Assembly (NCBI GenBank): GCA_963809485.1
Contig: CAWEJX010000001.1
Coordinates: forward strand, 502,091 to 566,090
Direction: 5' to 3'
DNA from: an uncultured Acidobacteriota bacterium
GTDB lineage: Bacteria; Acidobacteriota; UBA6911
Length of the DNA stretch: 64,000 nt
Program-made: the position numbers and the translations under genes
Shown: positions 8,026-62,860 of the stretch, piece by piece
Layout of the letters: every line of letters begins with the position of its first letter
Numbering within the stretch: the stretch's first letter is position 1
The notes under the pieces: generated by a model
Database searches by the model: none
What the model was told of the DNA's origin: nothing
What the model saw: the letters and a program-made list of their open reading frames with translations, nothing else

Positions 8026-8240
8026 GATTTACGATTTACGATTTACGATTGACGAATTAAAACATACCACGAGGACGGCCATTCTACAGGAATGGATCGA
8101 CGCTCTGAATGGATTAGGGATTGGCGGAAATAGACTCACGGTTCCGTTCCGCCCATGGAAATGAGGCACCCGGCTGATTTTGAAGACCGACCGGAAAATT
8201 CTGTTTCAAATCGTAAATCGAAAATCGTCAATCGTAAATT
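8026..8240. repeat. Inverted pair of tandem heptamer arrays, (GATTTAC)n ... (GTAAATC)n
   Basis: Left arm 8026-8058 GATTTAC x3, GATTGAC, GAATT. Right arm 8208-8240 AAATC GTAAATC GAAAATC GTCAATC GTAAATT. Confidence 0.9.
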
Positions 8241-8251
8241 TCCAGGGCTTC

Positions 8252-8288
8252 TGCTATCATCATTAGTTTTGATTGAAATCAGCTTTCA
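8252..8288 (+). promoter_or_regulatory. Candidate extended -10 promoter and Fur/DtxR-like operator upstream of feoB
   Basis: TGnTATCAT at 8252-8260; palindrome TGAAA-N5-TTTCA at 8274-8288, ending 18 nt before the feoB ATG. Confidence 0.45.
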
Positions 8289-8306
8289 GGAAGGCTCAAT
8301 TCAGGC

Positions 8307-10571: not shown

Positions 10572-10579
10572 TCCGCATC

Positions 10580-11260: not shown

Positions 11261-11290
11261 TTCGGGATTCGAAACTCAAATCCCGGATCA
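11258..11290. terminator. Hairpin between convergent genes
   Basis: TGATTCGGGATT / AATCCCGGATCA inverted repeat whose ends are the two stop codons. Confidence 0.55.
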
Positions 11291-15014: not shown

Positions 15015-15052
15015 TAGTGGTTAGTGGTTAGCTTTTAGGGATTAGGGATTAG
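15015..15052 (+). repeat. Left heptamer arm of the four-helix-bundle cassette
   Basis: TAGTGGT TAGTGGT TAGCTTT TAGGGAT TAGGGAT TAG. Confidence 0.92.
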
Positions 15053-15104
15053 AAAAAGTGGATCAAAGAGAAGGATGATCATTAGGATAGTATGGAGCCC
15101 CAAT

Positions 15105-15467
15105 ATGTCAGCGGCAAACTATAGCGACCTCATTGCATGGCAAAAGGCATTCAGGTTGGCATTGGCACTCTATAAGTCAAAGGCAGACTTTCCTACAGAG
15201 GAAAAATATGGGATTACGTCACAGATAAGAAGGGCTTGTATTTCGGTACCATCCAATATTGCCGAAGGGCATGGGCGCAGTTCAAAGGGCGATTTCTATC
15301 ATCATCTGTCCATCGCTCAAGGATCGCTGAAAGAGATTGAGACCCAACTTCTAATCGCCAATGCACTGGGCTATTGTGGTACAAAACAGACTTCTCTGCT
15401 CATGACGATGACGGCAGAAGTAGGCCGTCTGATCAGTGGCCTACGCAAATCACTAAAACCCCATTAA
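15105..15467 (+). CDS. Four helix bundle protein (23S rRNA-IVS-like / bAvd-like family)
   Basis: YSDLIAWQKA, FPTEEKYGITSQIRRACISVPSNIAEG, AQGSLKEIETQL; GGAG RBS before ATG 15105; visibly lower GC than its neighbours. Confidence 0.93.
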   Translation: MSAANYSDLIAWQKAFRLALALYKSKADFPTEEKYGITSQIRRACISVPSNIAEGHGRSSKGDFYHHLSIAQGSLKEIETQLLIANALGYCGTKQTSLLMTMTAEVGRLISGLRKSLKPH

Positions 15468-15492
15468 CCTATTCTCTCCCAATTCATCACTC

Positions 15493-15540
15493 CTAATCCC
15501 TAATCCCTAAACCGCTAACCACTAACCGCTAACCGCTAAC
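15493..15540 (-). repeat. Right heptamer arm of the four-helix-bundle cassette
   Basis: CTAATCC x2, CTAAACCG, CTAACCA, CTAACCG x2, CTAAC; contains the stop codon of the SPL-like gene. Confidence 0.92.
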
Positions 15541-16613
15541 AACTGGTTGAGATGCGCGGCATTGCGGGGGCGCTCGCCGAAACTCCGTTCCCAGACCGCT
15601 GCGCTTTCCATGCAGAGATAGACGAAAACTTCCGGCGCCTGCTCTCGAATCCAGGATCGCATCCGCCTGTACATCTCCTCCCGTATGGGCCGGAAGTACC
15701 GGAGCTTTCCATGATGGCCCGGAACGAACTCCCCGTAAGGGATCCTGGATTTCGGGAACCGCTTTCGAACAAGCTCCCGCAGGTGCGGGGTAAAGCGGAG
15801 CGCCCCCAGGCTCACCCAGGCGATTCTGCCCGGATCGACAGCTCGAAAGATATCTCTTACGGCTTCCCTGTAGCCCGTTTCCCATTCCTCATAAAAAATG
15901 ACAGGATCGAAATGGAATCCAACTTTGTAGCCCCATTTTTGGCACTGAACCGCCGCAGCCAGACGCGTGTCAAAAGACGGGGCCCCAAGCTCCTCCGTAG
16001 AGCAGATGTGCCTGGAATTCATCGACCATGAGACTACTGTGCGGCCGCGATGGTCCAGATCCTTCAGGTTCCCGATCTGGTCGGACTTGGTTTTAAGTTC
16101 GAGAACGGCATTGGAGTGTGCTGCGAAAAGCGGCACGATTCGCTGCGAATACCGGGTGATGGAGTCCAAAGCCAGCGAATCGGTGAGTTCCCCGGTCCCG
16201 ATTCTAAGGCTGCGCTCCGGCGAACGGTCGAGTGTCGTTCGCACCTCAGTCAGCAAATCCTCGATGTTGGTGCAAACAACCATTGCATTGTTATTCAGAT
16301 AGCACTGCAGGACGCAGTAGGTACACTCCATCGGGCAGTTCCATGCATAGCTCACGATCTTATAGTTGCAGCAGATCTCGGCACCGCTCCCCTGGCAGTT
16401 TTTTAGGAAATTCCCGGCGAATCGCATGAGAATCAGGGTATCTTTAGTATGCCTTTGCAGGTCAGCCGTGCCGTCCGGGTCGGCCGATCGGCTGTCGGCA
16501 TTTTTAATGGTGTGTGTCGGGATTCCCTGCAGCCGCTCCAGGATTTCGTGAGTGGCCCGATCCTGCCAGGATTGCTCCTGAACCAGAATTTGTTTGGGAA
16601 TATAGGGCATCAT
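15522..16613 (-). CDS. Spore photoproduct lyase-family radical SAM protein
   Basis: CPMECTYC motif, GTGELTDSL, LELKTKS, VGFHFDP, GKLRYF and YLCME motifs. Confidence 0.87.
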   Translation of the reverse strand: MMPYIPKQILVQEQSWQDRATHEILERLQGIPTHTIKNADSRSADPDGTADLQRHTKDTLILMRFAGNFLKNCQGSGAEICCNYKIVSYAWNCPMECTYCVLQCYLNNNAMVVCTNIEDLLTEVRTTLDRSPERSLRIGTGELTDSLALDSITRYSQRIVPLFAAHSNAVLELKTKSDQIGNLKDLDHRGRTVVSWSMNSRHICSTEELGAPSFDTRLAAAVQCQKWGYKVGFHFDPVIFYEEWETGYREAVRDIFRAVDPGRIAWVSLGALRFTPHLRELVRKRFPKSRIPYGEFVPGHHGKLRYFRPIREEMYRRMRSWIREQAPEVFVYLCMESAAVWERSFGERPRNAAHLNQLLAVSG

Positions 16614-16619
16614 AGGCTT

Positions 16620-16660
16620 AAAGGATCAAAGGAGCAGAGGATCAAAGGATCATAGGGCTC
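16620..16660. repeat. Degenerate octamer tandem repeat (AAAGGATC)n
   Basis: AAAGGATC AAAGGAGC AGAGGATC AAAGGATC ATAGGGCTC, immediately upstream of the SPL-like start. Confidence 0.75.
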
Positions 16661-16774
16661 AGATAATTTGTTTATAATATACACCAAGCTTTGCCCTACC
16701 CTCTGCCATCAAGTCTTGTAGTCAGGCGACAATTGCCGGCAGCATCAGCAGCGCCGCACGATCTCACGGGGCAG

Positions 16775-17746
16775 TCAGCGGACGTCAAAAAGCTCCTCCA
16801 GCACCGGCATCTGCGAGGCACTTTGAAGTGCGGCCGCCAGATTGCGAAACCGGCCCGGAGTGCTTGCATTGAATTCGACGCGCAGGCCGGGTGTTTCGAA
16901 GAAAGGATCGGTGCTTATCTCGATGGCAGCGGGCAAACCCAGCGATTTCTTCTGCTCCATGAAATGCTCCGCCGCCCGCGCAAGTCTCGGATTACGCAGC
17001 CGGTAAAGCACCTCATGCAGCCTCTCCCCTTTTTGAAAGGCGGACCAGTGCGTGTCGCTCAAGGCAGCCTGAATTTCGGCATTTTTAAGCGGTCCGGTCA
17101 ACGGGACCTCTCCCATGGCTGCCAGTTCTTCCAGCAGGTTCAGGACCTTCCTTTGCATGCTGGCGCTCAGCCGTATTTTGTCCATCAGGGCAGCTACATC
17201 TGCCTGAACGGCCCAGGGCGTCCCAGCGAGATATTCCACGCTCCCCTGGGTAAGCCGCCCATCGAGGAGACACCGACGGATATCGGGATGAAGACTGTTC
17301 AGCGACATGCAGGATAGCAATACGCTTTCGCGGGGCGTCAAATCCAGGAGCGGAAGATAACGCTCCACGATCCTCTTCTCCGACAAGGCGCAAGTATGCC
17401 TCAGCTTGAGAAGCACGCGCGCCTTTTCAAGAAGATGCAGGCGCCGGTGCGAAAGGTTGTCCCATAAAGCCAGATCAAGGGCCTGGATGGGCTTGCACTC
17501 ATTTTCGCTTAGAATTCGCGCGACAGCCGTGTTACCAAGCTGCTTCAGGGCTCTGAGACGCCGGAAACCGCACACAATGACCTTTCCCGGCTCCCGGTCC
17601 AACAGGCATACAGGATTCAGCTGCCCGATTGCGCGCAGTGAATCCAAAATGGCGGCGGAATCAAGTTCTTCGCTAATCCTGAAACTTTCATCCGAGAAAT
17701 CGATCTCTTCCAGAGGAATTTCTTTAAATGTCATGATGGGAAGCAT
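16775..17746 (-). CDS. ParB/Srx N-terminal domain protein
   Basis: IPLEEID, SLRAIGQLNPV and VCGFRRLRAL (ParB box GxRR); start uncertain (17734-17788). Confidence 0.8.
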   Translation of the reverse strand: MLPIMTFKEIPLEEIDFSDESFRISEELDSAAILDSLRAIGQLNPVCLLDREPGKVIVCGFRRLRALKQLGNTAVARILSENECKPIQALDLALWDNLSHRRLHLLEKARVLLKLRHTCALSEKRIVERYLPLLDLTPRESVLLSCMSLNSLHPDIRRCLLDGRLTQGSVEYLAGTPWAVQADVAALMDKIRLSASMQRKVLNLLEELAAMGEVPLTGPLKNAEIQAALSDTHWSAFQKGERLHEVLYRLRNPRLARAAEHFMEQKKSLGLPAAIEISTDPFFETPGLRVEFNASTPGRFRNLAAALQSASQMPVLEELFDVR

Positions 17747-17888
17747 AGCGAAATGGGGACCCGATTCACAACAGTTACCTCCATTCATTTGTTGTGTTTA
17801 AAGAGTGCTTTTGATATAAAAACGCCAGCATCATGTGGCGGAGGAAAGGCCTGTGCGGCATTCCCTCTTTTAACAAGGAGATCATGAT

Positions 17889-26003: not shown

Positions 26004-27545
26004 ATGGCAACTTCAAAATCGGCAGGTCTGCTGAATAAGCTATCCATCAAGGAGATAAATCCTGGAGCCTGTTTTGGGCCAGGCGGATGGATCTCCGACC
26101 CCGAGGGCCGCGAAACCGTCTCCTATTGCCCTGCTACCGGCGAGCCTATCGCGAAAGTGATTCAGGCCGGTCGTGAAGCATACGAACGCATCGTTTCTCA
26201 GGCCGCAAAGGCTTCTGGTGCATGGCGCATGGTTCCCGCTCCCAAGCGCGGAGAAATTGTTCGGGACCTTGGGAATGCATTGCGGCAGCTCAAAGAGCCG
26301 CTGGGGGAGCTGGTCAGCCTGGAAATGGGCAAGATCCGGGTTGAAGGACAGGGCGAAGTCCAGGAAATGATCGATATATGCGATTTTGCAGTTGGGCTGT
26401 CCCGCCAGCTTTACGGGCTGACGATTGCCTCCGAGCGACCGGGGCACCGGATGATGGAACAATGGCATCCTTTGGGAGTCGTCGGCGTGATAACCGCTTT
26501 TAATTTTCCCGTTGCCGTATGGGCCTGGAACAGCGCCATTGCAGCGGTTTGCGGCGACCCGGTGATTTGGAAACCTGCAGGTGCAACTCCTCTCTGCGCG
26601 ATCGCCGTGCAGCATATCGCCAACCAGGTCATGGCGGATCACAATCTGAACGGAATCTTCAGCCTTCTTATCGGCCATGGAAACAGCATCGGAAATCAGA
26701 TGATCCATGATCACAATTTTCCGCTGATATCCTTTACCGGCTCCACGCGCGTCGGGCAACATGTGTCGGAAGGAGTCGCGCGCCGCTTTGGCCGAGCAAT
26801 CCTGGAACTCGGAGGCAACAATGCAGTCCTGGTGACCGAGGAAGCGAACCTGGATCTGGCGACACGCGCGATCCTGTTCGGCGCCGTTGGAACGGCCGGG
26901 CAGCGCTGTACATCCACGAGGCGTATCATCGCCCACAAAAGCGTTTCAGGGGAGCTGATACAAAGGCTGGTGCGGGCCTACAGCCAGGTGAAGATCGGAG
27001 ATCCGCTGGATCCGTCCGTTCTGATGGGCCCCTTGATCACGTCCGAGGCAGTCGACGACATGTTCCGCGCGATCGGGCAGGCAAAAGAAGACGGCGGCCG
27101 GGTGCTTTTTGGCGCGCGGCGCCGGCCTGATCTCGGCCCGCTTTTTGTGGAGCCCACAATTCTGCAAATGCCGTTACAAACGGATATCGTGAAGAAGGAG
27201 ACTTTTGCGCCAATCCTGTATATTCTCGAGTACGATAGCTTTGAAGAGGCTTTGAGACTCCACAACCAGGTGCCCCAGGGGCTCTCCAGCGCAGTCTTTA
27301 CAGGAAGCCTGCAAAAGGCCGAGGAGTTTCTCTCGCCACGCGGCTCAGACTGCGGCATCGCCAACGTCAACATCGGCACGTCCGGCGCCGAAATCGGCGG
27401 GGCTTTCGGCGGAGAAAAGGAGACCGGCGGCGGCCGCGAGTCGGGTTCCGATGCATGGAAGGCCTATATGCGCCGCCAGACAAATACCATCAACTGGTCA
27501 AACGATCTCCCCTTAGCGCAAGGAATCCGCTTCGACGATGAATAA
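26004..27545 (+). CDS. Aldehyde dehydrogenase, ALDH7/piperideine-6-carboxylate dehydrogenase type
   Basis: AFNFP, FTGST, LELGGNNA, GTAGQRCT, ETFAP and GAEIGGAFGGEKETGGGRESGSD motifs. Confidence 0.93.
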   Translation: MATSKSAGLLNKLSIKEINPGACFGPGGWISDPEGRETVSYCPATGEPIAKVIQAGREAYERIVSQAAKASGAWRMVPAPKRGEIVRDLGNALRQLKEPLGELVSLEMGKIRVEGQGEVQEMIDICDFAVGLSRQLYGLTIASERPGHRMMEQWHPLGVVGVITAFNFPVAVWAWNSAIAAVCGDPVIWKPAGATPLCAIAVQHIANQVMADHNLNGIFSLLIGHGNSIGNQMIHDHNFPLISFTGSTRVGQHVSEGVARRFGRAILELGGNNAVLVTEEANLDLATRAILFGAVGTAGQRCTSTRRIIAHKSVSGELIQRLVRAYSQVKIGDPLDPSVLMGPLITSEAVDDMFRAIGQAKEDGGRVLFGARRRPDLGPLFVEPTILQMPLQTDIVKKETFAPILYILEYDSFEEALRLHNQVPQGLSSAVFTGSLQKAEEFLSPRGSDCGIANVNIGTSGAEIGGAFGGEKETGGGRESGSDAWKAYMRRQTNTINWSNDLPLAQGIRFDDE

Positions 27546-27580
27546 CAGGATTTTGAGGGAAGGCATCATGCCTAATCCAT

Positions 27581-27974
27581 CAGTCAGGCGCCTCCGGCAA
27601 AGCCGGAGGCCTGAAGGATTGGAACCGCTCAAAGCGGTTGGAGGAGTTACGCCAATCTTGAACGCTGACTTACGCGGGCAAAAGCCGATGAGGTGCTTCC
27701 GATCCCCGCAGGGACCAGCGCTCCGCGCTGGACGGTTTTCTGCGGCGGCACTGTGGCAAACGCCCGGTTTCTCATATCCTCCATCTCCTTAGCGCACGGC
27801 GCTTGCCACAGTGCCACCGCAGAAAACCCAATCGGAAGCACCTCATCGGCTTTTGCTCGCCGACCCTCGCCGACCAGATCGGCGTTTGTCAGCGCTTTGG
27901 TCAGCGTATCTCAGCGTTTCAAAATATGGAGCCGTCAAACTCTATGAGTCCCCCGGCAGAGCCGAGGGTTTACC
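27581..27974. mobile_element. Non-autonomous IS200/IS605-type palindromic element (PATE/MITE-like), copy 1
   Basis: Terminal hairpins GCCTCCGGC-AAA-GCCGGAGGC and CCCCCGGC-AGA-GCCGAGGG-TTTACC; subterminal AACCGCT-CAA-AGCGGTT; no transposase; homologous copy at 45856-46081. Confidence 0.75.
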
Positions 27975-28027
27975 ACTAGAATCAGGAAGAGGATCACCGA
28001 ATTTTTTCCCAAGCCCGAATCTCGAGA

Positions 28028-31003
28028 CTACAAAAGGCGGGCGGAGTCCACGGTCAGGGTAACGGCGCCGAAATCTTCTTCGACCACGCCGCTCAACACA
28101 TAAGGGCGGGAGCGATTCAGCATGTGGCAAAAACGCGCATAGGTCTGCGGGAAAAAGGTCGTTTCATAAAGAGCACTGGTGTCTTCGAAGCTGATGAACT
28201 CCATCGGCTCGTCTTCACGGGTCGTGACAACCTTCCCGGTTACCCACCAGCCCACGGTCGTCACCCGCTTCCCGACATGCCTGGGCAGATCGGCGCCTCG
28301 GACATACTTCATTTTTGAAAGATGTGCAGAATAGAGCGACAACGGATGGCGGCTGATCAGGAAATCCAGGGTCTCCAGTTCATGTTCCAGGACCGTGCGA
28401 GGACTGTACTGCGGCGTCGGCGGAGGGGCGACCGACGGCACATCCTGAAATAGAGAACGCTCCACCGAAGGGCGGGATGCGCGTGTCGCATGCCAAGCCA
28501 GGGCTTGCCAGATCATCTCGGGCCGCGTCGCGCCGCCGGAAATGCTGTCCATGGCTCCGGCCTTGATCAGGATCTTGACATCCGCCGGATCCAGTTCCAC
28601 ACGGCAGAGGAAATCCTCCAGGGACGCAAAGGGCCTTCTCCTGCGTTCTTCCAGAATTGCCTGAAGGGCCGCTTCATGAAGGCCTTTCAGCTGCATCAAC
28701 CCGACCCGGATGGTTTTATCGCAGCCCCAGTACTCCTTGCGGCTCTCGTTGATGTCCGGCAGAAGCACGCGCAGCCCCATCCGGCGGGCCTCCGAAACAT
28801 AGGCGAACGGCGAGTAATAACCGCCCTGGTTGGTAAGCACCGCCGCTATGAATTCCGCCGGGTAATGCGCGCGCAAATAGCAGGACTTGTACGAAACCAG
28901 GGCATAGGAGGCCGAGTGCGGCTTGCAAAACGAGTAGCCCGAAAAACTCAGGATCATCTCCCAGATTTCGTCGATGACGCCGCGCGGCGCACCCCGGGCG
29001 GCAGCGCCGGCATAAAACATCTCCCTGTAGTCCTCGAGCTTTTTGCCTGCGCGTTTTTTCGAAAGGATCTTCCGCAGCAGGTCCGCATCTGAAGCGCCGA
29101 ACCCCGCCATGGCCATGGCAATTCGTGAAACGTCTTCCTGGTACACCATGATCCCGTACGTTTCACTCAGGACTTCGTCCAGAACAGGGTGCAGCGACCG
29201 GTAGGAGCCTCCCTTCAGCCGCCGCACATATTCGCGAATATATTTGTTGGCTGCCGGGCGTATGATCGAGCTGTGGATGACCAGATGGTCGAAATCCCCG
29301 GTCCGGCACTTCTGCTGCAGCTGCCGCATCGACGGGGACTCCACATAGAACACGCCCACCGTGTCGCCTCTGCGAATGAGGTCCTGCGTTTTGCAGTCCG
29401 TGGTGGGATCCCATTGATCGTAATCAATTTCCATGCCGCAATTTTCCCTGACTGCAGCCAGGGCATCCCGTATCACGGCCAGGGACCTGTTTCCCAAAAG
29501 ATCGATTTTTATCAGGCCGGCGTCTTCGGCCTGGTCTTTCTCCCACTGAATGATCGGGACGCCTTTGGGCGAGGGCTCCACCGGCACGTACCGGTCGATC
29601 CTGTCGGGAACAATGACAATCCCGCCGCAGTGCACAGACATGTGGCGGGGATAGCCCTCAAGTTTTGCCGCCAGGCGCACAATCTCGGGCCAGGGTTCCT
29701 TCAGTTCCATATCCTTATAGACGGGATCATGCCGGATGGAATTCTCCAGGTAGTGAATCGACCAGTACACGCCCATACGCTGCGTCACCGCCTTGATCTC
29801 CTGTTCGGGGAGGCCGTACACTTTGGCCACTTCCCTTGTGGCGGCGCGCGTGCGAAATCCCACGTGGTTGGAAATCATGGCGGCCCTGGATGCGCCGTAC
29901 TTGCGGAAAACGTAGTCGAAAACGCCGTCGCGCTCATCCCAGGGGAAATCGATGTCGATATCGGGCGGGTCCACGCGGCCTTCGTTGAGAAAGCGCTCGA
30001 AAAAAAGGTTGTGGGTGATGGGCTCGACATGCGTGATCCCGAGGCAGTACGAAACCAGGCTCGCAGCCGCCGACCCGCGGCCGCAGGTGCGCGCCGATTG
30101 ACGCACAATATCCCGCACAATCAGGAAATAAGGCGCAAAGCCTTTGTCCCGGATGATCTTCAGTTCATGTTCCAGGCGCTTCCGCACGGAGTCCGACAAC
30201 TCGCCATAGCGGCGCTCGGCGCCGCGGTAACATTCTTCTTTCAAGTACTCAAAGGGATCCGATCCGCCGACGTCCGCAGAGGGGAACACGAGCCGGCCGA
30301 TATCCAGATCCGGGGTGCACTGCTCCGCAATGCGCCGCGTGTTTTCCAGGGCTCTTTCGACATGCGGATATCGGCGCGCCATCGCATCCGCGGGTTTCAG
30401 CCAATGATCGTCACTCACCAGTTCCAACGGCGGGATGCGTGACAGACTCGTGTTCAGATCGATCGCGCGCAGCAGGCGGTGCATCGCGTAATCCGATGGA
30501 TCCGCAAAATATACGTCGTTGGTCGCCACCGGCGGAATTCCGCTCGTGCGCGAAAAATCGAGCAGCGGAGGTTCGGCGCCGGGATCGTTCAGTTCCACGT
30601 AAAGGCCTGAAGTTCCGTTCTGCCGGGCAAGAGCTTTCAATAACGGGATCTGATCGCTCAGAACAAACAGGTTGTCGCATCCTTCAATAAGAGCTTTGTT
30701 CAGGCAAAAATCCGGCTCCGTGAGGCGCCGCGATATGATCCGGCAGAGAGTCTCGTATCCTTGCCGGTTGCGCACAAGCAGAGTTGCCCGTTCCGTCTGC
30801 GTCCGCAACTCCGAACCGACGATCGGCCGCAAGCCGCGCTCTGCAGCGTACTGCAGGAACCAGATCAGGCCGTAGACGCCGTTGATATCCGTCAGGGCCA
30901 TCGCGGACATGCCGCGAGCCAGGGCCGCGTCCACCAGATCCTCGATTTTACTGGCGCCACGGCAGAACGAGTAATTCGAATGAACATGCAAATGAATAAA
31001 CAT
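28028..31003 (-). CDS. dnaE2: Error-prone DNA polymerase III alpha subunit (DnaE2/ImuC)
   Basis: HLHVHSNYS PHP domain, GRGSAA, FERFL, PPDIDIDF, KIDLLG, YSFCKPH and C-terminal OB fold; follows an imuB-like gene. Confidence 0.9.
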   Translation of the reverse strand: MFIHLHVHSNYSFCRGASKIEDLVDAALARGMSAMALTDINGVYGLIWFLQYAAERGLRPIVGSELRTQTERATLLVRNRQGYETLCRIISRRLTEPDFCLNKALIEGCDNLFVLSDQIPLLKALARQNGTSGLYVELNDPGAEPPLLDFSRTSGIPPVATNDVYFADPSDYAMHRLLRAIDLNTSLSRIPPLELVSDDHWLKPADAMARRYPHVERALENTRRIAEQCTPDLDIGRLVFPSADVGGSDPFEYLKEECYRGAERRYGELSDSVRKRLEHELKIIRDKGFAPYFLIVRDIVRQSARTCGRGSAAASLVSYCLGITHVEPITHNLFFERFLNEGRVDPPDIDIDFPWDERDGVFDYVFRKYGASRAAMISNHVGFRTRAATREVAKVYGLPEQEIKAVTQRMGVYWSIHYLENSIRHDPVYKDMELKEPWPEIVRLAAKLEGYPRHMSVHCGGIVIVPDRIDRYVPVEPSPKGVPIIQWEKDQAEDAGLIKIDLLGNRSLAVIRDALAAVRENCGMEIDYDQWDPTTDCKTQDLIRRGDTVGVFYVESPSMRQLQQKCRTGDFDHLVIHSSIIRPAANKYIREYVRRLKGGSYRSLHPVLDEVLSETYGIMVYQEDVSRIAMAMAGFGASDADLLRKILSKKRAGKKLEDYREMFYAGAAARGAPRGVIDEIWEMILSFSGYSFCKPHSASYALVSYKSCYLRAHYPAEFIAAVLTNQGGYYSPFAYVSEARRMGLRVLLPDINESRKEYWGCDKTIRVGLMQLKGLHEAALQAILEERRRRPFASLEDFLCRVELDPADVKILIKAGAMDSISGGATRPEMIWQALAWHATRASRPSVERSLFQDVPSVAPPPTPQYSPRTVLEHELETLDFLISRHPLSLYSAHLSKMKYVRGADLPRHVGKRVTTVGWWVTGKVVTTREDEPMEFISFEDTSALYETTFFPQTYARFCHMLNRSRPYVLSGVVEEDFGAVTLTVDSARLL

Positions 31004-31004
31004 A

Positions 31005-31128
31005 TAGGGATTAGGGATTAGGGATTAGAAAATTCATGTTTAAGAAAAGCTCTCTTAAAAAGGTTAACAAGCGAAGTAAATGCGCCATTATGTTCTCCCG
31101 CAACGTCCTAATCACTAACCGCTAACCA
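31005..31128. repeat. Inverted heptamer pair between imuB and dnaE2
   Basis: TAGGGAT x3 plus TAG (31005-31028); CTAATCA CTAACCG CTAACCA (31108-31128); AT-rich spacer of about 80 nt. Confidence 0.88.
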
Positions 31129-32260
31129 CTGCAGAGTCGCCGTAGCGGCGGCGCAGGGCGTCGAGGGCGAACTCCAGTTTCAGGCGGCGTTCAGGCTTGG
31201 GATCCGCGAAAAGTTCCAGTTGAACCGAGCCGGAAGAGAGATCCGTCAGCTCCAGGTGCATGCTGCGCACTCGCGTGCGCCGCTTCAGAATGGAATCCAG
31301 GACCGGCAGGGCGCGCGCATAGAGGATCGCCGACGACTGCAGCGGCGGTGCAACTTTGAGGGTACGGCCGTCCTCCGCGTAATCGGCGTACCGGATGCGC
31401 AACCCTATCCTGCCCGCGCGTTGCTTGGTATCGCGCAATTGCCTGCCTGCGTGTTCGCAAAGATCCGACAGCTCTTTTTTCAGCAATTCATAGTCGTTGC
31501 TGTCTTCGGACAGCACTTTCCCCTTTTCCAGTGCCGGCACGGAGCGCTTCGGATGCACCGGTGTGCTGTCAATTCCGAGGGCATGCTGGTAGAGCATAAA
31601 TCCAAGACGGCCGAACGCCAGGGCCAGGTGCTCCTGCCTCATCGCCGCAATATCACGGATCAGACGAATGTTGAGATCTTCGAGCTGTCCCTCGATTTGA
31701 GGGCCGACGCCGGGCAGCAGACGCACCGGCAGGGGGGACAGGAAAGAAGGCTCGTTCCCACAGGGAACATCCTGCAAACCGGAAGGTTGAGTCACATCCG
31801 AGGCGATCTTGCTCACCATTTTGTTGGAAGCAACCCCGAGCGAAGTGTCCAGATGAAGCTGTTGCCGGATTTCTTTCTGGGCCCTCCATGCGGTATCCCG
31901 CGGCGGGCCGAATAGCCGGCCGGTCCCCGTAATGTCCAGGTATGCATGCCCATAGCCCGAAGGCTCGATGATGGGCGAATAGCTGTCCAGAACCTTGAAA
32001 ATCGCGCGCGAAGCCCGAAGATAAAGCTGCTCGTTCGGCGGCAGCACGGCGATATTCCTGCAATAACGTGTGGCCTTTGAGAGAGCCATTCCCGCACGAA
32101 TGCCCGCACCCCGCGCTTCCGAAGACAACGCTGTCACGATGGAACGGGCCGCGCCAAGCGGGGCCACCACCACCGGCCGGCTACGCAGCTCAGGGTGTAG
32201 GACCCGCTCCACGGCCACAGGAAAGTCCGTAACCGTCACATATATGATCTGCCGTTCCAT
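31115..32260 (-). CDS. imuB: Catalytically inactive Y-family polymerase, ImuB-like
   Basis: DinB-like sequence but TVTDFPVAVE and GYGHAYLD replace DMDAF and SIDEA; clamp motif QLELF; upstream of dnaE2. Confidence 0.8.
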   Translation of the reverse strand: MERQIIYVTVTDFPVAVERVLHPELRSRPVVVAPLGAARSIVTALSSEARGAGIRAGMALSKATRYCRNIAVLPPNEQLYLRASRAIFKVLDSYSPIIEPSGYGHAYLDITGTGRLFGPPRDTAWRAQKEIRQQLHLDTSLGVASNKMVSKIASDVTQPSGLQDVPCGNEPSFLSPLPVRLLPGVGPQIEGQLEDLNIRLIRDIAAMRQEHLALAFGRLGFMLYQHALGIDSTPVHPKRSVPALEKGKVLSEDSNDYELLKKELSDLCEHAGRQLRDTKQRAGRIGLRIRYADYAEDGRTLKVAPPLQSSAILYARALPVLDSILKRRTRVRSMHLELTDLSSGSVQLELFADPKPERRLKLEFALDALRRRYGDSAVVSG

Positions 32261-32268
32261 ATTCCAAT

Positions 32269-32349
32269 TTACGAATGACGAATTACGAATGACGAATTGA
32301 AAAACTGGGCTGAGGTTTCAATTCGTCATTCGTAATTCGTCATTCGTAA
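32269..32349. repeat. Perfect 34-bp inverted repeat built from TTACGAA/TGACGAA heptamers, 13-nt loop
   Basis: 32269-32302 is the exact reverse complement of 32316-32349. Confidence 0.95.
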
Positions 32350-33112
32350 TTCCTTTTAGTAGTTCCAACAACATGCGCGCGTTGACGACGGCCTGGCCCC
32401 GCCAGTGATTGCCCATGAAGATGAGGACTTTTTCGCTCTCCTGTTCCAGCCGGCGAATTTCCGGGACCACTGCCGCAAGCTCAGCCCTGCTGTAAAGGTA
32501 ATCATGTTGGGCAGACCCGTCGCCTTTAACCCACCTGGACCGGTTCCGCCCCTGGAAACGTACGTAGGCCAGACCCGCAGTCGCGCAAAAAAAAGTCCTT
32601 TCTTTCAGGCCCGTTCCGCCATCCACACAGGCAAGCGCGATGCGAGCGGCGTCCAGATGTCTGGCTGCCCTTGGCGAAAGCCAATTCGTGCAGCCGAACT
32701 CCGCAATTAGCGGAATGCCTTCGAGGGAATCCCTCATCAGGCACAATCGTTCGAAGTTGTCGCGCATAAAACCGAATTCGGGAGGAAACTGCGCCAGGAC
32801 CCCGGCCAATTGACCCGAATCCTTCAATGGCCACAGGGCCGCGCAAAACCGCCTGGCCAGCTCAGGGTTATCCGGGTGCTCCTCCGAGAGCCGGTAGGGA
32901 GCACGGAAAATGAACTGAACGCTTTCCCGGGTTTGCTCGATAATCTCTTGAATAGTAATGACTTCCGGAATCCTGTAGTAGGTCAGTCCAAGCTCGCAAC
33001 AGCCGAACTGACGGCCGTAATAGCCCAGCCAGAAAGCCGGATCAAGGCTTCTGGGATAAAACACCGGCGTCCACTCACGGTACTGGAATCCGCTTGTCCC
33101 TACGAGGATCAT
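32318..33112 (-). CDS. DUF72 (YecE-like) domain protein
   Basis: MILVGTSGFQYREW..FYP, LAQFPPEF, YVRFQGRN and DYLYS motifs; start set at 33112. Confidence 0.9.
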   Translation of the reverse strand: MILVGTSGFQYREWTPVFYPRSLDPAFWLGYYGRQFGCCELGLTYYRIPEVITIQEIIEQTRESVQFIFRAPYRLSEEHPDNPELARRFCAALWPLKDSGQLAGVLAQFPPEFGFMRDNFERLCLMRDSLEGIPLIAEFGCTNWLSPRAARHLDAARIALACVDGGTGLKERTFFCATAGLAYVRFQGRNRSRWVKGDGSAQHDYLYSRAELAAVVPEIRRLEQESEKVLIFMGNHWRGQAVVNARMLLELLKGITNDELRMTN

Positions 33113-33118
33113 AAGATA

Positions 33119-33147
33119 AAAATAGGTGAAGATTTGGTGAAAATCAA
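33119..33147 (-). promoter_or_regulatory. Candidate sigma-70 promoter with direct-repeat operator for DUF72-imuB-dnaE2
   Basis: Minus strand reads TTGATT-17 nt-TATTTT-6 nt-ATG; the spacer is TTCACC-N5-TTCACC. Confidence 0.55.
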
Positions 33148-33171
33148 CAAAAAACTGAAGGTCTGAGAGAT

Positions 33172-33195
33172 GGGGGACAGTCACGAATGTCCCCC
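33172..33195. repeat. REP-like palindrome
   Basis: GGGGGACA-GTCACGAA-TGTCCCCC. Confidence 0.55.
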
Positions 33196-33322: not shown

Positions 33323-34357
33323 ATGGAACAGGAATCTCGACAGATCAATTTCGCATTCATCGGATTTGGACACGTCGGACGGGCCTTCGCCAGGCTTTTG
33401 CTCGACCGGCGGAAATGGCTTCTCAGGGAATACGGCATCGAGTGGAAAATCACCGGCATCGCAACCAGGAACCATGGGACCGCCATCGATCACGAGGGCA
33501 TGCCGGTCAAAAAGATTCTCGGCTCCTGGAAACGACACTCGAGTCTGGACCCTTACAACAACGGGCCCGCCTGCGCCTCGCAAACCGATTTCATTCGTCA
33601 GTGCGGTGCCGATGTGCTGTTCGAAATGAGCGTGCTGGACCTCAGCGGGGAGCCTGCGGCAACCTATATCCGGGAAGCGCTCGGCGCAGGCCTTCATGTG
33701 ATCACCACCAACAAAGGACCCGTGGCGACCCAATTCCGTCCTCTCACCCGGCTGGCCCGGCTTCGGGGTGTCCGGTTTCTGTATGAAGGCACGGTAATGG
33801 ACGGCGCTCCGGTATTCAATCTCCTCCGTCAGACGCTTCCGGGGACCCGCATACGGTCCCTGCGCGGCATCATCAACAGCACAACCAACTACATCATCAC
33901 CGCGATGGAGCAAGGGACCTCATTCGAAGCGGCACTCGACTATACGAGGAATCTCGGACTGACCGAGGCAAATTCCAGCCTGGATCTCGACGGCTGGGAT
34001 GCGGCAGCCAAGCTCTCAATCCTGATCCAGGCCATGATGGGCGGCAGCGTTAAACCCAAAGACATCGAGAGGAGCGGCATCTCCGAAGAAACCGGCAGGC
34101 TTGTCCGGGCCGCCGTGCGCCGCGACCGGCGGCTCAGGCTTGTGGCCAGGGCTTACCGGCAGGGGGGAAGAGTCGTCGGGAAAGTCGAGCTGCAGGAACT
34201 CGAAATTTTCGATCCGCTCGCCGCGATACGCGGCCTGGGCAATATCCTGATCCTGAACACCGATACGATGCGTGAACTCGCAATTATCGAAAATAACCCG
34301 TCGGTAGATCAGACCGCCTTCGCCCTCTTCTCCGACCTGATCTCCCTGCTCCAATAA
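33323..34357 (+). CDS. hom: Homoserine dehydrogenase (short form, no ACT domain)
   Basis: GFGHVG, HVITTNKGP, YEGTVMDGAP, GIINSTTNYI and DLDGWDAAAK motifs. Confidence 0.88.
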   Translation: MEQESRQINFAFIGFGHVGRAFARLLLDRRKWLLREYGIEWKITGIATRNHGTAIDHEGMPVKKILGSWKRHSSLDPYNNGPACASQTDFIRQCGADVLFEMSVLDLSGEPAATYIREALGAGLHVITTNKGPVATQFRPLTRLARLRGVRFLYEGTVMDGAPVFNLLRQTLPGTRIRSLRGIINSTTNYIITAMEQGTSFEAALDYTRNLGLTEANSSLDLDGWDAAAKLSILIQAMMGGSVKPKDIERSGISEETGRLVRAAVRRDRRLRLVARAYRQGGRVVGKVELQELEIFDPLAAIRGLGNILILNTDTMRELAIIENNPSVDQTAFALFSDLISLLQ

Positions 34358-34703
34358 TGAGATGTGATCGGAAAAGCGCGCCAGGTCTATTTCTCTTCAG
34401 GCAAGGTTGGCATTCGCTGGAACAGGATCGGTCTGCCCCTCGGCAACAGCGCACACTAGCCTGCTTCTCTTTCTTACAGGATTCCTGTTGCGAATTCCGA
34501 CAGTTCGTGCAAGCCCCATGTCATAAATCGCGGGTCACCGGTCGCCATGTACAACCTGTGGCCTGTGCACTGCGACCTTGAACCCACAACAGCTATGACT
34601 GTCCGCGTCGTATCTCTTCGAAATTTTGTGGTTGTGATAATGAAGGCTGTGAAATGGAAAACACGCGCAACAAAATAGAGAGCCTTCATTCAGCCGCACA
34701 ATG

Positions 34704-34731
34704 CTAACCACTAACTGCTAACCGCTAAACG
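34704..34731. repeat. Solo heptamer arm (CTAACYR)n
   Basis: CTAACCA CTAACTG CTAACCG CTAAACG, just beyond the SDR stop codon. Confidence 0.8.
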
Positions 34732-34736
34732 CTGCT

Positions 34737-35510: not shown

Positions 35511-35513
35511 GCT

Positions 35514-37271
35514 TCATCTCCGATGCTTGTTCCTATCCAACCCGTTCTGCTTACCGGTGTAGAGATAGCGTTTGACCTTTTTGGTCGTAGTTTTCTCCAG
35601 CTCTTCATGACTCACCATGAGCTTCGTTACCCGCTTGTAGGTTGCCAGATTCTGACACCGCTCCTTCACTTCCTTCCGGATAATGCCCTCGATCCGGCTC
35701 ATCTCTGCCTCTCCTGCCGTTCCCTGCCGCTGTGCGCTGAAGTAATCCATGTTGGGAACTACAATGGCTTCTATGGCAGGATCACGTCCCGGCTCATCCG
35801 TTCCTTCACCCCAAACCAGGCATTCGGAGATGCAGGGAGACTTGAGGATTTCCGCTTCCACCTCCTCCGGGTATATCTTCTTGCCGGCCGGTGTGACAAT
35901 GACGGACTTCTTACGGCCATGAATGTAGAGGAATCCTTCATCGTCCAGATAGCCCAGATCGCCCGTATGGAGCCAGCCGTCCTCCAAAGCTTCCCGCGTT
36001 GCATCGGGATTGTTGTAATAGCCTTTCATGATATTGGGACCGCGCGCCAGAATCTCGCCGTCCTCAGCTATCCTGACCTCGACACTTGGCAGCGGCAGCC
36101 CGGCCGCGTCATCCCTGAAGGCTCCGGTCCTGTTGACGGCAATAATCGGCGCAGATTCCGTCAATCCATATCCCTGAAGGAAAATTATGCCCAACTCCCG
36201 AAAGCCCCTCGCGACCGCGGGATCGATGGCGGCACCCCCGGATATCAAAATGCGTAGGTGGCCGCCCAGCTTCTGGTGCACTTTGGCAAAGACCAACCGG
36301 CGAATATTCAGTCTCAGAGTCTTTTCCAGGAAGGCAGCCGCTGCTTTGGCCGCATTGACCTTCCACAGTCCTTTTTCCGCCATGGCGGATTCGATCTTTT
36401 TGTAAATTGCATGCCAGAGGATCGGCACTCCGAGCACAGCGGTAGAGCGAGTTTCAGCCAGGTTCTCCGCGAACCGGCGGAGGTTTTCGGCATAGGAGGT
36501 TGTCGCGCCCAGATAGATCGCCAGGAGAAATCCGTCGGTGCACTCATAGCTGTGATGGATGGGCAAAACCGATAAAAACCTGTCTTCTGTGCGGAGGTCC
36601 ACCCACCGCACGGCATCCACGAGATTGCAGGCAACGTTTGCATGGGTCAGCAGGACGCCTTTGGAGTTGCCCATCGTCCCTGACGTAAAAAGAATCGAGA
36701 GGAGATGATCCTCGGACACCGTGCGCTCGTTGAAGTCGTTCTTCCCTGAACGGATCCGCTCCTGTCCTAATCGCTTCACTTCGGAAAAGCTGAGGACTCC
36801 TGCCAGGGGGCGGATTTCGTCCATGTTCATAGCATGAGTGAGCCCGGGCAATTTCCCGCGCAAGCCCAGGATCATCTCCATATGCTTATCGTCGCCGATC
36901 AGGGCCTGGGCGCCCGAAAGGACGAGGATGTTATACACCTCGGTTGCTTTCAGGTCCCTGTCAATGGGAACGCAGACTATCCCCGTGCATGCTGCAGCCA
37001 GGTAGGACACTGCCCATTCCGGCCGGTTGTCGCCGACGATTGCCAGTTTGCTCAGGGACGGCTGCAATCCCAGGGCAGCAAATCCGCAGGCCGTGTTCTG
37101 GACTTCATCGTAAAGCTCTCGAAAGGTGATTGACTCCCAGTTCCCGGATTTCTTGTGTTGCAGCGCAATCTTGTCGCCAAATTTACGGGTGCTTTTCAGG
37201 AACATGTCCCGTATGTCGGAAATGGGCTCCGATGGATTGGCCGGATATCTACCTTTCATACCCGCAGACAT
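35514..37271 (-). CDS. Long-chain fatty acid-CoA ligase (AMP-binding)
   Basis: FTSGTMGNSKGV, QGYGLTE, LHTGDLG and GRKK motifs; start uncertain (37259 or 37271). Confidence 0.9.
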   Translation of the reverse strand: MSAGMKGRYPANPSEPISDIRDMFLKSTRKFGDKIALQHKKSGNWESITFRELYDEVQNTACGFAALGLQPSLSKLAIVGDNRPEWAVSYLAAACTGIVCVPIDRDLKATEVYNILVLSGAQALIGDDKHMEMILGLRGKLPGLTHAMNMDEIRPLAGVLSFSEVKRLGQERIRSGKNDFNERTVSEDHLLSILFTSGTMGNSKGVLLTHANVACNLVDAVRWVDLRTEDRFLSVLPIHHSYECTDGFLLAIYLGATTSYAENLRRFAENLAETRSTAVLGVPILWHAIYKKIESAMAEKGLWKVNAAKAAAAFLEKTLRLNIRRLVFAKVHQKLGGHLRILISGGAAIDPAVARGFRELGIIFLQGYGLTESAPIIAVNRTGAFRDDAAGLPLPSVEVRIAEDGEILARGPNIMKGYYNNPDATREALEDGWLHTGDLGYLDDEGFLYIHGRKKSVIVTPAGKKIYPEEVEAEILKSPCISECLVWGEGTDEPGRDPAIEAIVVPNMDYFSAQRQGTAGEAEMSRIEGIIRKEVKERCQNLATYKRVTKLMVSHEELEKTTTKKVKRYLYTGKQNGLDRNKHRR

Positions 37272-38007: not shown

Positions 38008-38059
38008 TTCATTCCGATATTATTCCGGGATTTCCGATCCGTCAACGTAAACCCGGCTT

Positions 38060-38206
38060 TAGCGGTTAGGGATTAGGGATTAGGGATTAGGGATTAGGAT
38101 AATGCTGCATCGATTATAGTGGCTGCCATTCATTCAGGAGCTTGCCGTCAACCGTACCGTTCTAATCCCTAATCCCTTATCACTAATCACTTATCCCTAA
38201 TTGCTA
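38060..38206. repeat. Inverted heptamer pair, telomere-like (TAGGGAT)n ... (CTAATCC)n
   Basis: TAGCGGT plus TAGGGAT x4 (38060-38097); CTAATCC x2, CTTATCA, CTAATCA, CTTATCC, CTAATTG, CTA (38162-38206). Confidence 0.92.
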
Positions 38207-56983: not shown

Positions 56984-56984
56984 C

Positions 56985-59900: not shown

Positions 59901-61260
59901 GGCGGTTGCCAGGTCCCCGTTGTAGTAATTAAACCCGCTCGAATACTGCTTCCAGGTCTGCTCGCTCTGCTGCCCCAGAGCGTTCGTCGTGTAGCGCGGC
60001 AGCGCGTAGTTCGTCGAACTCGTGAACGTCCGCGTCGTCGTATTGCTTTTCGCATCCGTCTCCGACACCACGTTCCCCGTCATGTCGTACCCGGATGTCG
60101 CCGTCAGAAAACGGCTCTCCCCGATCAGTTTACGCCGCACGCTCGTCGGATTGCCCCGCACCGTTATGTTCGGAGTGTCGTAAGCAGTGTCATGGTTATA
60201 GACCGGCCCCTGATACAGCGTCAACTGGTATTCATCGTACCCATACTCCGTCCGCGCCACTTCCGTGCCGCTTCCATCCTTGACCGATACCGCGGCCGGC
60301 AGGTTCGTCATGTTCGCTGCCGTATAGGCGGAGTTGCTTTCATGCCGGTAGGTCGTCGTCGCTCGTCTGAGCACCACCGTGTTGCCGTACTTGTACTGGA
60401 CCGTCTGGCTGATATTGCCCGTGCCGTCGTTGGCATAGACCAGCTCCGTTTTGAGGCTCTGTCCGTCGTCCAGCGTCGTCGTCCTCCGCGTCGGGCGGGG
60501 ATTCACGATATAACCGGCGCTTATGTCCTGCTCCCAATCGGTCGCTTGAGTCCGGTACACCGTCGTCTGGCTCAGATTCTTGCGCTGCATGCTGGAAATC
60601 AGCCCGTCGGACCACGAACGGGCCGGGTAGACCGAATAGTTGAAATTATAGTCCGTGATACCGCGAATATCCGTTACGGCCGTCTTGGACGGATTGGATC
60701 CGTTGCCGTTGAACGTATAAGCCAGCGATGTCGTGTAATATTGCGTGCCGTCCGTGTAATCTTTCCGGCTCGTCACCACCCGTTCCTCCACGCTGGTGTA
60801 GACCGGATCCGAATACGAGCGCGTGGCAAATGCAAAATCGGCCAATGTCTTCGTGATATTCTGCCCGTCCTTTTCCACCCGGTTCGTGATGCTCTGAATC
60901 TCTCCCAGATAGTAGTAAATGTAATTCTGAACAAAATTCCGGTCCGGCAGACTGAACGTGATCGAGTTCAACCTCCACTCGCCCGTCGGGACCTGTTTGG
61001 GTACCGAAAAAGCAGGTGTCAACGATCCGGCGGCGCTGGTGTTGAACGTAATCGTGCCTCGGAAGGTGCCGTAAGAGGTTATGGTCTCCAGGCAGCCGGT
61101 GGTGGCATTGTAGGAAAACGCCGCGGCTTTGCCCAGACTGTCGAATACCTCGTTGAGCTTGCCTGTCCCCGTTACATAAGTGGCCGTAATCCGGTTTCCG
61201 TTCGTGTCTTTCATCTCGGTCATGTAGCTGGTATTACCCACGGTATTGTCTGGATATCCT
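56985..61260 (-). pseudogene. Rhs/YD-repeat polymorphic toxin, 5'-truncated and split by three frameshifts; JAB-like C-terminal domain
   Basis: YD repeats in four consecutive ORFs. Core end ESGLHYNLARSY..YVRNDPIKLVDPDG at about 57720. C-terminus has HEEGG..WHVHP..PSGQD. Confidence 0.85.
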
Positions 61261-61792
61261 GCCGGTTGAGCCTGTCTATGGTCAGGCGGGATTGCGGGAA
61301 TACGGTCGCCGCCAATAGCAGGGCCGAAAGAATGCCGCATGCTATGCGCATGGTTGTCTCCATCGATTTAGGGCATCATAAATCCGACACTGAATGCTTA
61401 AGGACTGGTTCTTAATGATCTTTTGGGAAATGCCGAACTGCCGGTCTTTCGGTGATGCGGTGGTTTTAGGGTAGTTCAAAAAAATCAAGCGAAATCTTCC
61501 AGTGGGGCTCTCTGAAATCCGATGTTCCATTTCTTCAGAGATCGCGGGAAATTCATCTCGGAGATGGGTCGCTGCATTCCGGAAAGTGTAATTGAAGTAC
61601 GATAATCAGCTTAGGTATTCAATCGAAAGCTGTGTAACAGGCGAACTGCCGAGGGAAGGTTGCGATTGTATAGGATTTTGCTGCTGCAGCTGCCGGGTGC
61701 TGGGCATTGCCTGGCTGCCGCGTACCGTTATCCCAATTCCACTTTTTCTGCCTGCCCGAATGCGATACCATTTTGGTCCGGAAAGGGTAAGC

Positions 61793-62827
61793 ATGGGTGT
61801 ACCGATTTCACAGATGTATGCCGTAGCCTCCTATGTGCTGCGGCAAAAGGCGGCAGGGAAAAAACGCTACCCGCTCGTTCTCATGCTGGAGCCCCTTTTC
61901 CGCTGCAACCTCGCCTGCGCGGGATGCGGCAAGATTCAGTACCCCGCGGAGGTTCTCAGGCGGCACCTGACACCCGAACAATGCTTCAAGGCCGCCGAGG
62001 AATGCGGAGCGCCGATGGTCAGCCTCCCGGGCGGCGAGCCACTCCTTCATCCCCGGATCGCCGAAATTGTCGAGGGCTTGATCGCCCGAAGGAAATATGT
62101 CTACCTCTGCACCAACGCTTTGATACTCGAGGAAAAACTCCATCTATTCCGCCCGAGCAGATACTTCACCATCAACGTTCACCTGGACGGGCAGAGGCAG
62201 TTTCACGACCGCTCCGTGTGCCGCGAGGGCGTGTTCGATATAGCCGTTCGCGCCATCCAGGAGGCGGTAAAGCGCGGATTCCGGGTAACCACCAACACAA
62301 CCCTGAATAGGGAATCGGTTCCGCAAAGCGTTCGCGCTTTCTTTGACGAAATGATGGCTCTCGGGGTTGAAGGGATGACGCTTTCGCCGGGATATTGCTA
62401 CGAAAAAGCTCCGGAAAAGGAGTATTTTCTTTCCCGGTCCGAAACGGAAAAGCTTTTCGCCCGCATCCTGGGCAATCGCAAAAAGAGCTGGAAGTTCAAC
62501 CAAAGCCCACTGTTTCTTCAATACCTGATGGGACTGCGCCAATATGCCTGCACCCCGTGGGGTATGCCCGCATATAACCTCTTCGGCTGGCAAAAACCCT
62601 GCTACCTGCTGCAGGACGGATATTTCGACAGCTTCTCCGCCCTGATGGAGCAGACCGATTGGGGCCAATACGGCGTGCAGTCCGGAAATCCGCGCTGCGC
62701 AGACTGCATGGTCCACAGCGGCTACGAGGCCAGCGCCGTCAACGACACCTTTGGCTCACTGAAAGGCCTCTGGGATACGGCCCGCGCGATGATGATTCGA
62801 AATTCGAAATTCGAGATTCGAAATTAG
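61793..62827 (+). CDS. hpnH: Adenosyl-hopene transferase HpnH (hopanoid radical SAM)
   Basis: YPLVLMLEPLFRCNLACAGCGKI, CTPWG, GWQKPCYL and CADCMVHSGYE motifs. Confidence 0.95.
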   Translation: MGVPISQMYAVASYVLRQKAAGKKRYPLVLMLEPLFRCNLACAGCGKIQYPAEVLRRHLTPEQCFKAAEECGAPMVSLPGGEPLLHPRIAEIVEGLIARRKYVYLCTNALILEEKLHLFRPSRYFTINVHLDGQRQFHDRSVCREGVFDIAVRAIQEAVKRGFRVTTNTTLNRESVPQSVRAFFDEMMALGVEGMTLSPGYCYEKAPEKEYFLSRSETEKLFARILGNRKKSWKFNQSPLFLQYLMGLRQYACTPWGMPAYNLFGWQKPCYLLQDGYFDSFSALMEQTDWGQYGVQSGNPRCADCMVHSGYEASAVNDTFGSLKGLWDTARAMMIRNSKFEIRN

Positions 62828-62860
62828 CGCGACAGCCTTCAATTTCGAATCTCGAATCAT
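62795..62860. repeat. Inverted heptamer pair (ATTCGAA)n overlapping the hpnH stop
   Basis: ATTCGAA x2, ATTCGAG, ATTCGAA, ATT; partner AATTTCGAATCTCGAAT at 62841-62857. Confidence 0.85.

Follow-up and report, generated by a model that had tools for sequence, protein, structure and literature searches.

Tandem heptamers are reported to outnumber all other periodic repeats in the intergenic regions of prokaryotes, and no clear function has been assigned to them (PMC6344855). Those of Xanthomonas and Nostoc are intergenic, lie near stop codons and are under-represented between divergent genes, with 70 convergent pairs in X. campestris (PMC4692102); heptamer arrays are also described in Beggiatoaceae (PMC4679880), and these accounts propose G-quadruplexes or translational control (PMC4692102, PMC4679880, PMC6344855). 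In Coxiella burnetii, a variable number of tandem heptamers lies upstream of the S23p open reading frame (ORF) in the intervening sequence (IVS) of the 23S rRNA, with RNase III cleavage at the first of them (PMC4990558). Avd, a protein of diversity-generating retroelements (DGRs), is reported to be pentameric and to bind an RNA stem-loop, holding flipped-out bases in crevices between its protomers (bioRxiv 10.1101/2023.10.23.563531). Here, a window of 64,000 nucleotides (nt) from an uncultured Acidobacteriota bacterium of the UBA6911 lineage (GCA_963809485.1, contig CAWEJX010000001.1, positions 502,091 to 566,090 of the forward strand) was analysed, in which short tandem heptamer arrays face their reverse complements across variable spacers and one such pair of arms brackets a gene for a four-helix-bundle protein of the PF05635 family. 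The heptamer hairpins are real, genome-wide and tied to PF05635, and sequence comparisons indicate a system of inherited hairpins with arms rewritten to follow the cognate protein, not an insertable element with empty and filled forms. No publication linking PF05635 to genome-wide heptamer hairpins was found in a search with partial literature coverage and without supplements.

The window comes from an assembly of 6.04 Mb in 21 contigs that is 95.7% complete (i.e. G000), which was compared with its nearest relative in the set (i.e. G006) and with other relatives (e.g. G001, G005, G018, G020 and G041). An initial annotation of the window had described six array pairs and a solo arm, all of which are present. 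The only gene-holding spacer, as that annotation had also noted, is the 439-nt one at 15015–15540, and its cargo (15105..15467, + strand; 120 aa, ORF opening at 15075, 47% GC) scores 119.8 bits against a cut-off of 24 with TIGR02436 and 124.8 against 33.8 with PF05635. Although structures of PF05635 proteins have been solved, this large family has, to our knowledge, no known ligand. The arms of this filled cassette (15015..15052, + strand; 15492..15540, − strand) form a stem of about 35 bp (z −4.6) that encloses the S23p-family ORF together with the heptamers. The cassette lies outside any rRNA gene, between genes for an HD-GYP regulator and a spore-photoproduct-lyase (SPL)-like radical SAM protein (15522..16613, − strand), and Rfam gave no match in the window or in four further loci. 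The structure model of the cargo (pLDDT 92.8, four helices) superimposes on XCC0516 (2GSC) with a TM score of 0.92 and a root-mean-square deviation of 0.8, and on Avd with TM scores of 0.79 for the RNA complex 8UB7 and 0.77–0.79 over 4DWL and 8UB7; the Avd profile gave a weak, sub-threshold match (25 bits against a cut-off of 80). Because 2GSC and 2RLD are five-chain entries, and from the available part of PMC4990558, we infer that the protein would form a homopentamer like XCC0516 and Avd; the placement of residue 56 is likewise putative.

Three TIGR02436 genes are present in the genome and each lies inside arms of its own, distinct unit family (3/3). In the two that lie beyond the window (L036 and L037), the reading frame is disrupted by single-base indels within short base runs, and these may be assembly errors. 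Across genomes, inverted pairs of arrays surround the gene at 87 of 145 homologue loci as compared to 1 of 233 shifted controls, after removal of short-flank or low-score loci and of one unpublished genome, and an independent metagenome set gave paired arms at 55 of 75 homologue loci. A lack of enrichment around four-helix-bundle genes had been set by the initial annotation as grounds for abandoning the idea; the enrichment was found. The repeat period was 7 at 76 of the flanked loci, 8 at eight and 6 at three; in relatives, some four-helix clades have 8-mer arms (L051 and L056) or 6-mer arms (L199, L202 and L204). Mean unit distance was 3.18 between paralogues of one genome and 1.81 between proteins at least 55% identical in different genomes, indicating at the sequence level that the unit tracks protein relatedness and not the host.

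Presence of the gene and of the arrays was also compared within the genus, where 23 of 30 genomes carry the four-helix gene. At loci picked regardless of this gene, one array was observed in 300 kb of seven gene-less genomes as compared to 82 in 713 kb of 22 gene-bearing genomes (Spearman 0.69); kin are not independent in this comparison, and the gene-less genomes fall into at least three lineages on the hpnH tree. Among the arrays at gene-less sites, 84 of 159 matched the unit flanking their own genome's gene, where 11.7 were expected (permutation p 2e-4), and 41 of 90 did so when the two genomes with hand-chosen sites were left out. The own-family arms of all three genes, the flanking of homologue loci and these matches all support the four-helix protein as the likely cognate factor, as had been suggested.

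The main evidence for rewriting was obtained from the unit family of the filled cassette (i.e. family T), in which a new unit (as at 15035–15041) was distinguished from old units (as at 15015–15021 and 15510–15516). All 12 orthologous family T sites compared carry the new unit in G000 and the old one in G006. New units number 75 among at least 141 in G000 and none among 137 in 23 arms of G006, and the same sites in G001 and G041 carry the unit that flanks their own orthologous gene. In G000 arms of mixed composition, the new unit occupies the loop-side end in 15 of 16 cases (3 ties; p 5e-4; last partial unit of each arm left out), with intermediate units further out. The filled cassette has this arrangement in both arms, old-type units being outermost (15015–15031 and 15510–15540, the latter encoding the C-terminus and stop of the SPL-like protein) and new-type units innermost (15035–15052 and 15492–15510). 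A second family exhibits a partial switch between G000 and G006. The arm unit across the genome seems to be rewritten to match the word bracketing the four-helix gene, with arms overwritten in concert when the unit of the cognate gene changes.

Old and new units differ by two bases, the diagnostic change being a G in place of T or C directly after AG, a dinucleotide common to 73 of 87 units (the 14 without this anchor were left out of base counts). The G000 protein has His at residue 56 and its G006 and G001 counterparts have Gln. Among homologues, G follows AG for 13 of 20 proteins with His56 and for 8 of 96 with Gln or Glu56; nearest disjoint His/Gln pairs were concordant in 13 cases, discordant in one and neither in six, and the association of His with G spans lineages of several phyla. 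These counts point to a candidate code linking residue 56 to the base after AG.

The hairpins are not confined to the window. At a score of at least 12, the whole genome contains 163 arrays of period 7, as compared to 4, 39, 9, 9, 11 and 26 of periods 6, 8, 9, 10, 11 and 12, respectively. At a score of at least 9, 322 arrays were obtained, with 284 falling into two data-derived groups. Inverted neighbour pairs within 700 nt numbered 58, against 5.0 for random placement and 25.6 (maximum 37) for permuted identities. An exact 12-mer partner was found for 141 of the 284 arrays (null 3.4), giving 97 paired cassettes (median spacer length 57 nt); the other half (143) have no such partner, contrary to universal pairing, and a degenerate partner was detected for 182 as compared to 11 by chance. 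Polarity per subfamily was 10:0, 26:1, 8:0, 3:0, 3:0 and 3:0, and the pairing first described in the window is seen genome-wide, each family having a single polarity. According to a crude gene caller, 222 arrays were intergenic, 46 overlapped a stop, 4 overlapped a start and 12 lay inside genes. Convergent gaps, 18% of all gaps, hold 27 of the 97 cassettes and are enriched, whereas divergent gaps, 21% of all gaps, hold nine and are depleted. Hairpin sites are mostly located at the 3′ ends of genes, and for the unit of each paralogue the genome has dozens of such hairpins without a gene inside. In being period-7, intergenic, near stops and often in convergent pairs, the arrays belong with the STRR and Xanthomonas-type repeats, a class that is descriptive rather than mechanistic. 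Apart from the four-helix gene, long spacers hold non-coding repeats, an FKBP-like gene or a small CxxC (FmdB-like) gene, as we take these two to be from their translations.

Several other repeats were encountered in the same scan. A dispersed non-coding element of ~300 nt with REP-like palindromic ends carries a degenerate heptamer hairpin mid-element (L031:1006-1292, i.e. G000 C1:140905-141191); it has 75 BLAST matches in G000 and ~45 among the matches listed in G006, is present or absent between these genomes at some sites, and flanks none of the four Y1 transposases of G000. Tandem amplification of an arm plus its spacer occurs in G000 at C7:561339-562208 (L038; 141 nt x6), C19:41293-41912 (L039; about 102 nt x6) and C1:274829-275230 (L040; 244 nt x2), producing a CRISPR-like appearance with near-identical spacers and no Rfam match. 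One large heptamer family (~61 arrays), for which a cognate gene was not found in G000, clusters on contigs C5, C7, C8 and C15; it occupies orthologous sites in G006 and is therefore not contamination. GxxExxY (TIGR04256) was considered as a second cognate and ruled out, being a single gene without heptamer arms (L174; G000 C7:765129-765458) that is bracketed by an inverted non-heptamer repeat.

Comparison of orthologous junctions separated the history of the sites from that of their contents. At the SPL junction, the four-helix gene is present in two of 21 genus relatives (G006 and G001); of the nine relatives in which the HD-GYP gene is still adjacent, two (G018 and G005) carry a hairpin with a different unit and no gene inside, and about six are armless, as judged by eye. 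In relatives at the class level, the SPL 3′ junction is occupied by period-8/9 hairpins and by other heptamer hairpins (L025 of G040 and L030 of G028). The gene was not found at the imuB (0/24), hpnH (0/27), dinB (0/4) or proDH (0/5) junctions of relatives, where a hairpin often persists with a genome-specific unit. The filled and empty forms claimed in the initial annotation are thereby upheld at the SPL junction, as filled, gene-less and armless states, and not at these four others. Within 1.13 Mb of G006 (about a fifth of that genome, in partly overlapping loci), a related array is retained at 30 of 38 orthologous sites, 21 of the 30 with a different top unit, and several of the eight non-retained sites still hold degenerate units. 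No relic of the four-helix gene was found in any gene-less spacer, the weak tblastn matches falling away from arrays, and 59 of 70 G000 spacers are unique. Gene-less hairpins are therefore inherited sites and not deleted filled copies, and the proposal that they are freshly inserted or excisable units was not borne out. No clean skip of the filled cassette occurs among the joints listed for contigs from four read runs (the runs share 0.21–0.24 of words); one skip was seen at 31004–31137, with unknown letters between. Nor is a transposase or reverse transcriptase linked to the cassettes: of the four Y1 matches, none carries the ends of the ~300-nt element and one, although close to a heptamer hairpin, has different repeats on either side, and the only reverse-transcriptase match is an 86-codon fragment on another contig. 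The original suggestion of a system lacking a transposase is upheld as far as the absence of such enzymes goes; the arm sequence and the interior turn over while the site stays.

Interiors bear marks of recombination. Two spacer inversions were observed, one in the window (32299–32320) and one involving the CxxC gene between arms on contig C20, which has one orientation in G000 and G020 and the opposite in G006 and G001. No spacer start of family T is common to G000 and G006, and one ~55-nt spacer is shared by three G006 sites. At the SPL site, four-helix gene identity is 66% between G000 and G006 and 73% between G000 and G001, as compared to 89% and 71% for SPL; the G000–G006 values (66% against 89%) mean either replacement at an occupied site or fast evolution. 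Interiors have thus been inverted, replaced or copied between sites.

The remaining sites of the window illustrate the same anatomy, with inter-arm gaps of 152 (8026–8239), ~78 (31005–31130), 13 (32269–32352), 63 (38059–38201) and 15 nt (62795–62860). The units of all window sites, originally counted as four sequences, fall into about three families. The host genes across the window sites are dinB, feoB, the HD-GYP regulator, the SPL-like radical SAM gene, DUF72, lon-N, proDH and hpnH; the Y-family gene before dnaE2 is the one annotated initially as imuB. Four of five folded window stems have z values of −4.5 to −10.9 and the dnaE2–imuB stem is weak (z −1.6). Translations bear out all four C-termini that arms had been said to encode (i.e. 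LAVSG, VVSG, ITNDELRMTN and IRNSKFEIRN, each followed by a stop), and arms lie ~1–2 nt from the start of dnaE2, 8 nt from that of the imuB-like gene and 15 nt from that of dinB. The dinB–feoB hairpin (8026..8059, + strand; 8208..8239, − strand) belongs to the family of the four-helix paralogue on contig C20, and its site and spacer are kept in G006. Beside the dnaE2 start, a family T arm (31005..31028, + strand) is entirely new-type in G000 and old-type in G006; its partner (31107..31130, − strand) encodes the imuB-like C-terminus and stop, and the pair is imperfect, without an exact 10-mer match between arms. The imuB–DUF72 hairpin occupies a site retained in most of the genus; its left arm (32269..32298, + strand) and its right arm (32320..32352, − strand), which encodes the DUF72 C-terminus and stop, enclose a spacer (32299..32320) that is inverted in G006 (local score 22 reversed, 6 forward). 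The left arm of the lon–proDH hairpin (38059..38098, + strand; right arm 38162..38201, − strand) has one outer old unit followed by new units. At the 3′ end of hpnH, the left arm of a third-family hairpin (62795..62825, + strand) encodes the C-terminus and stop and faces a right arm at 62841..62860 (− strand). The solo family T arm (34703..34733, − strand) consists of old-type units just past the stop of an SDR gene and has no 9-mer partner in 33900–35600.

Other features of the window were also recorded. A DNA-damage gene cluster (6820–8010, dinB; 15522–17788, ParB-like and SPL-like genes; 28028–33184, DUF72–imuB-like–dnaE2) has a gene order retained across much of the genus and holds four of the six window hairpins. 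A period-8 array lies at 16609–16656, between the SPL-like and ParB-like genes. A high-copy repeat at 27545–28027, after a gene and downstream of dnaE2, has a contig depth of ~3,500 as compared to ~20 around it. The gene convergent on hpnH (62885–63623) is split across frames, possibly by an assembly indel.

These observations are best accommodated by a two-part system, to which we assign a probability of about 0.6, consisting of a pentameric repeat-binding four-helix protein and of arm-to-arm recombination that writes units on the loop side. A pentameric ring like those of XCC0516 and Avd would read approximately one unit per subunit on the AG-bearing strand, as RNA or single-stranded DNA, with residue 56 helping to select the base after AG, and binding would mark or protect the hairpins. 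New units would then be added loop-side when arms at different sites recombine or are repaired by the host machinery, the gene cassette being one of the donors; by such donor-driven rewriting, the cassette would maintain both itself and the sites it targets, and would need no transposase for this. Excision of the insert from the transcript by RNase III is probably made possible by its long RNA stem, as in rRNA intervening sequences, a step modelled on the available account of the Coxiella IVS (PMC4990558) and one that would keep the cost to the host low.

A number of results weigh against this two-part system. Two of the three paralogues in the genome are frameshifted, yet their families are abundant, and for two large families (61 and 51 arrays) a cognate gene was not found in the 95.7%-complete G000 assembly. 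No array was detected in 52 kb of G003 or in 52 kb of G016, although each carries one gene. Gene presence and arrays both correlate with GC content, which is a partial confounder; despite this, G004 (51% GC) and G009 (57% GC) have no arrays in 135 kb. Donor copying predicts shared spacers, yet look-alikes were found for only 11 of the 70 G000 spacers, and no writer enzyme was identified. A strict tree test of the residue code comprises three independent pairs only (p 0.25), and the code is therefore suggestive, not proven. Furthermore, seven of 20 His56 proteins are without G, columns 76, 5 and 57, which may be no more than clade markers, outscore column 56, and G006 has four G-type units with no His among its examined four-helix hits.

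Regulation maintained by selection alone, in which a TRAP-like RNA-binding protein acts on hairpins that each evolve independently by slippage and selection with no copying, is considered unlikely. Long retention of sites at the same junctions, the enrichment of convergent gaps and rarity of divergent ones, the 46 overlapped stops as compared to only four starts, and the uniqueness of the majority of spacers are all as expected from such regulation. It would nevertheless need the same two-base change at dozens of arms within ~10% genome divergence, nearly always on the loop side, and it does not accommodate spacers that were replaced wholesale and copied between sites; genus members without the protein, moreover, lose all arrays yet retain the same operons. 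Less credible again is a passenger protein carried by a selfish IVS-like insert, whose arms seed repeats that neutral gene conversion homogenizes, so that the unit–protein link reflects physical linkage. Linkage alone does predict that the unit tracks the protein clade, the residue code is unproven on the tree, and families thrive beside frameshifted or missing genes. However, a single gene copy would need to prevail over dozens of older arrays even though neutral conversion favours the majority unit, His accompanies G in lineages of several phyla, and arrays vanish where the gene is lost. Least credible is a classical mobile unit, in which the arms would terminate a MITE-like or excisable element and the hairpins without a gene would be its deleted copies, newly inserted at gene boundaries, because the spacers hold no relics and are unlike one another, 30 of 38 sites are inherited, new and old units are joined in register, no transposase is linked and the joints listed for four read runs include no clean skip, even though filled, gene-less and armless alleles exist at the SPL junction, the same junction is occupied by different families in different genomes, and one family travels in the ~300-nt element, whose presence at some sites differs between G000 and G006.

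A bolder form of the two-part system, held only tentatively, would make PF05635 rings programmable repeat readers, under whose direction the unit of each ring is added to loop-side arm ends across the chromosome in a polar and templated manner. If so, each arm would be a chronological record with the oldest unit outside and the newest inside, resembling telomere or CRISPR leader-end growth without a dedicated transposase or reverse transcriptase; heptamer repeats of many bacterial phyla would be accounted for, and the rRNA IVS would represent a cassette of this kind that had inserted into rRNA. More generally, rewriting of hairpins may explain a long-noted, unexplained class of bacterial repeats, and the G000–G006 pair links heptamer repeats to PF05635; its two orthologues of 120 aa have different residues at position 56, and the two units are two bases apart. 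Binding that follows the code would provide a small programmable reader of nucleic-acid repeats, and loop-side rewriting, if active, would be an undescribed way to edit many chromosomal sites at once, inverting genes and altering protein C-termini.

Among known systems, the ORF-bearing 23S rRNA IVS has the same protein family inside a terminal inverted-repeat stem with heptamers, but the available Coxiella account omits heptamers as paired arms or protein sites (PMC4990558), and the present system differs in occupying mRNA gene junctions, in having ~97 paired and many solo gene-less relatives and in the apparent genome-wide rewriting of units. The Xanthomonas, Nostoc and Beggiatoaceae heptamers are the same kind of period-7 intergenic array near stops; unlike the arrays described here, those in the accessible accounts have no cognate protein, unit switching or polarity named for them (PMC4692102, PMC4679880, PMC6344855). 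Avd shares the fold (TM 0.77–0.79; PDB 4DWL and 8UB7) and a weak profile match below the cut-off, whereas the cassettes have no DGR reverse transcriptase, template repeat or variable repeat nearby, the genome has only the 86-codon fragment on another contig, and the target here would be a tandem repeat. REP/BIME and MITE families are dispersed intergenic inverted repeats near 3′ ends with species-specific sequence. The cassettes resemble them in being dispersed inverted repeats by 3′ ends and differ in their tandem-heptamer arms, inherited sites and lack of a RAYT or other transposase carrying their ends; MITE copies share interiors as well as ends, whereas most interiors here are not conserved, and REP repeats flank a Y1 transposase, which the heptamer arms do not. 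TRAP of Bacillus is a ring oligomer with one short repeat per subunit, and is an analogy only, having an unrelated fold, few targets and no site rewriting. Taken alone, the filled cassette is a variant of the ORF-bearing IVS; it is the putative cognate code, together with the concerted polar rewriting suggested by the arms, that matches none of the families tested and sets this system apart from them.

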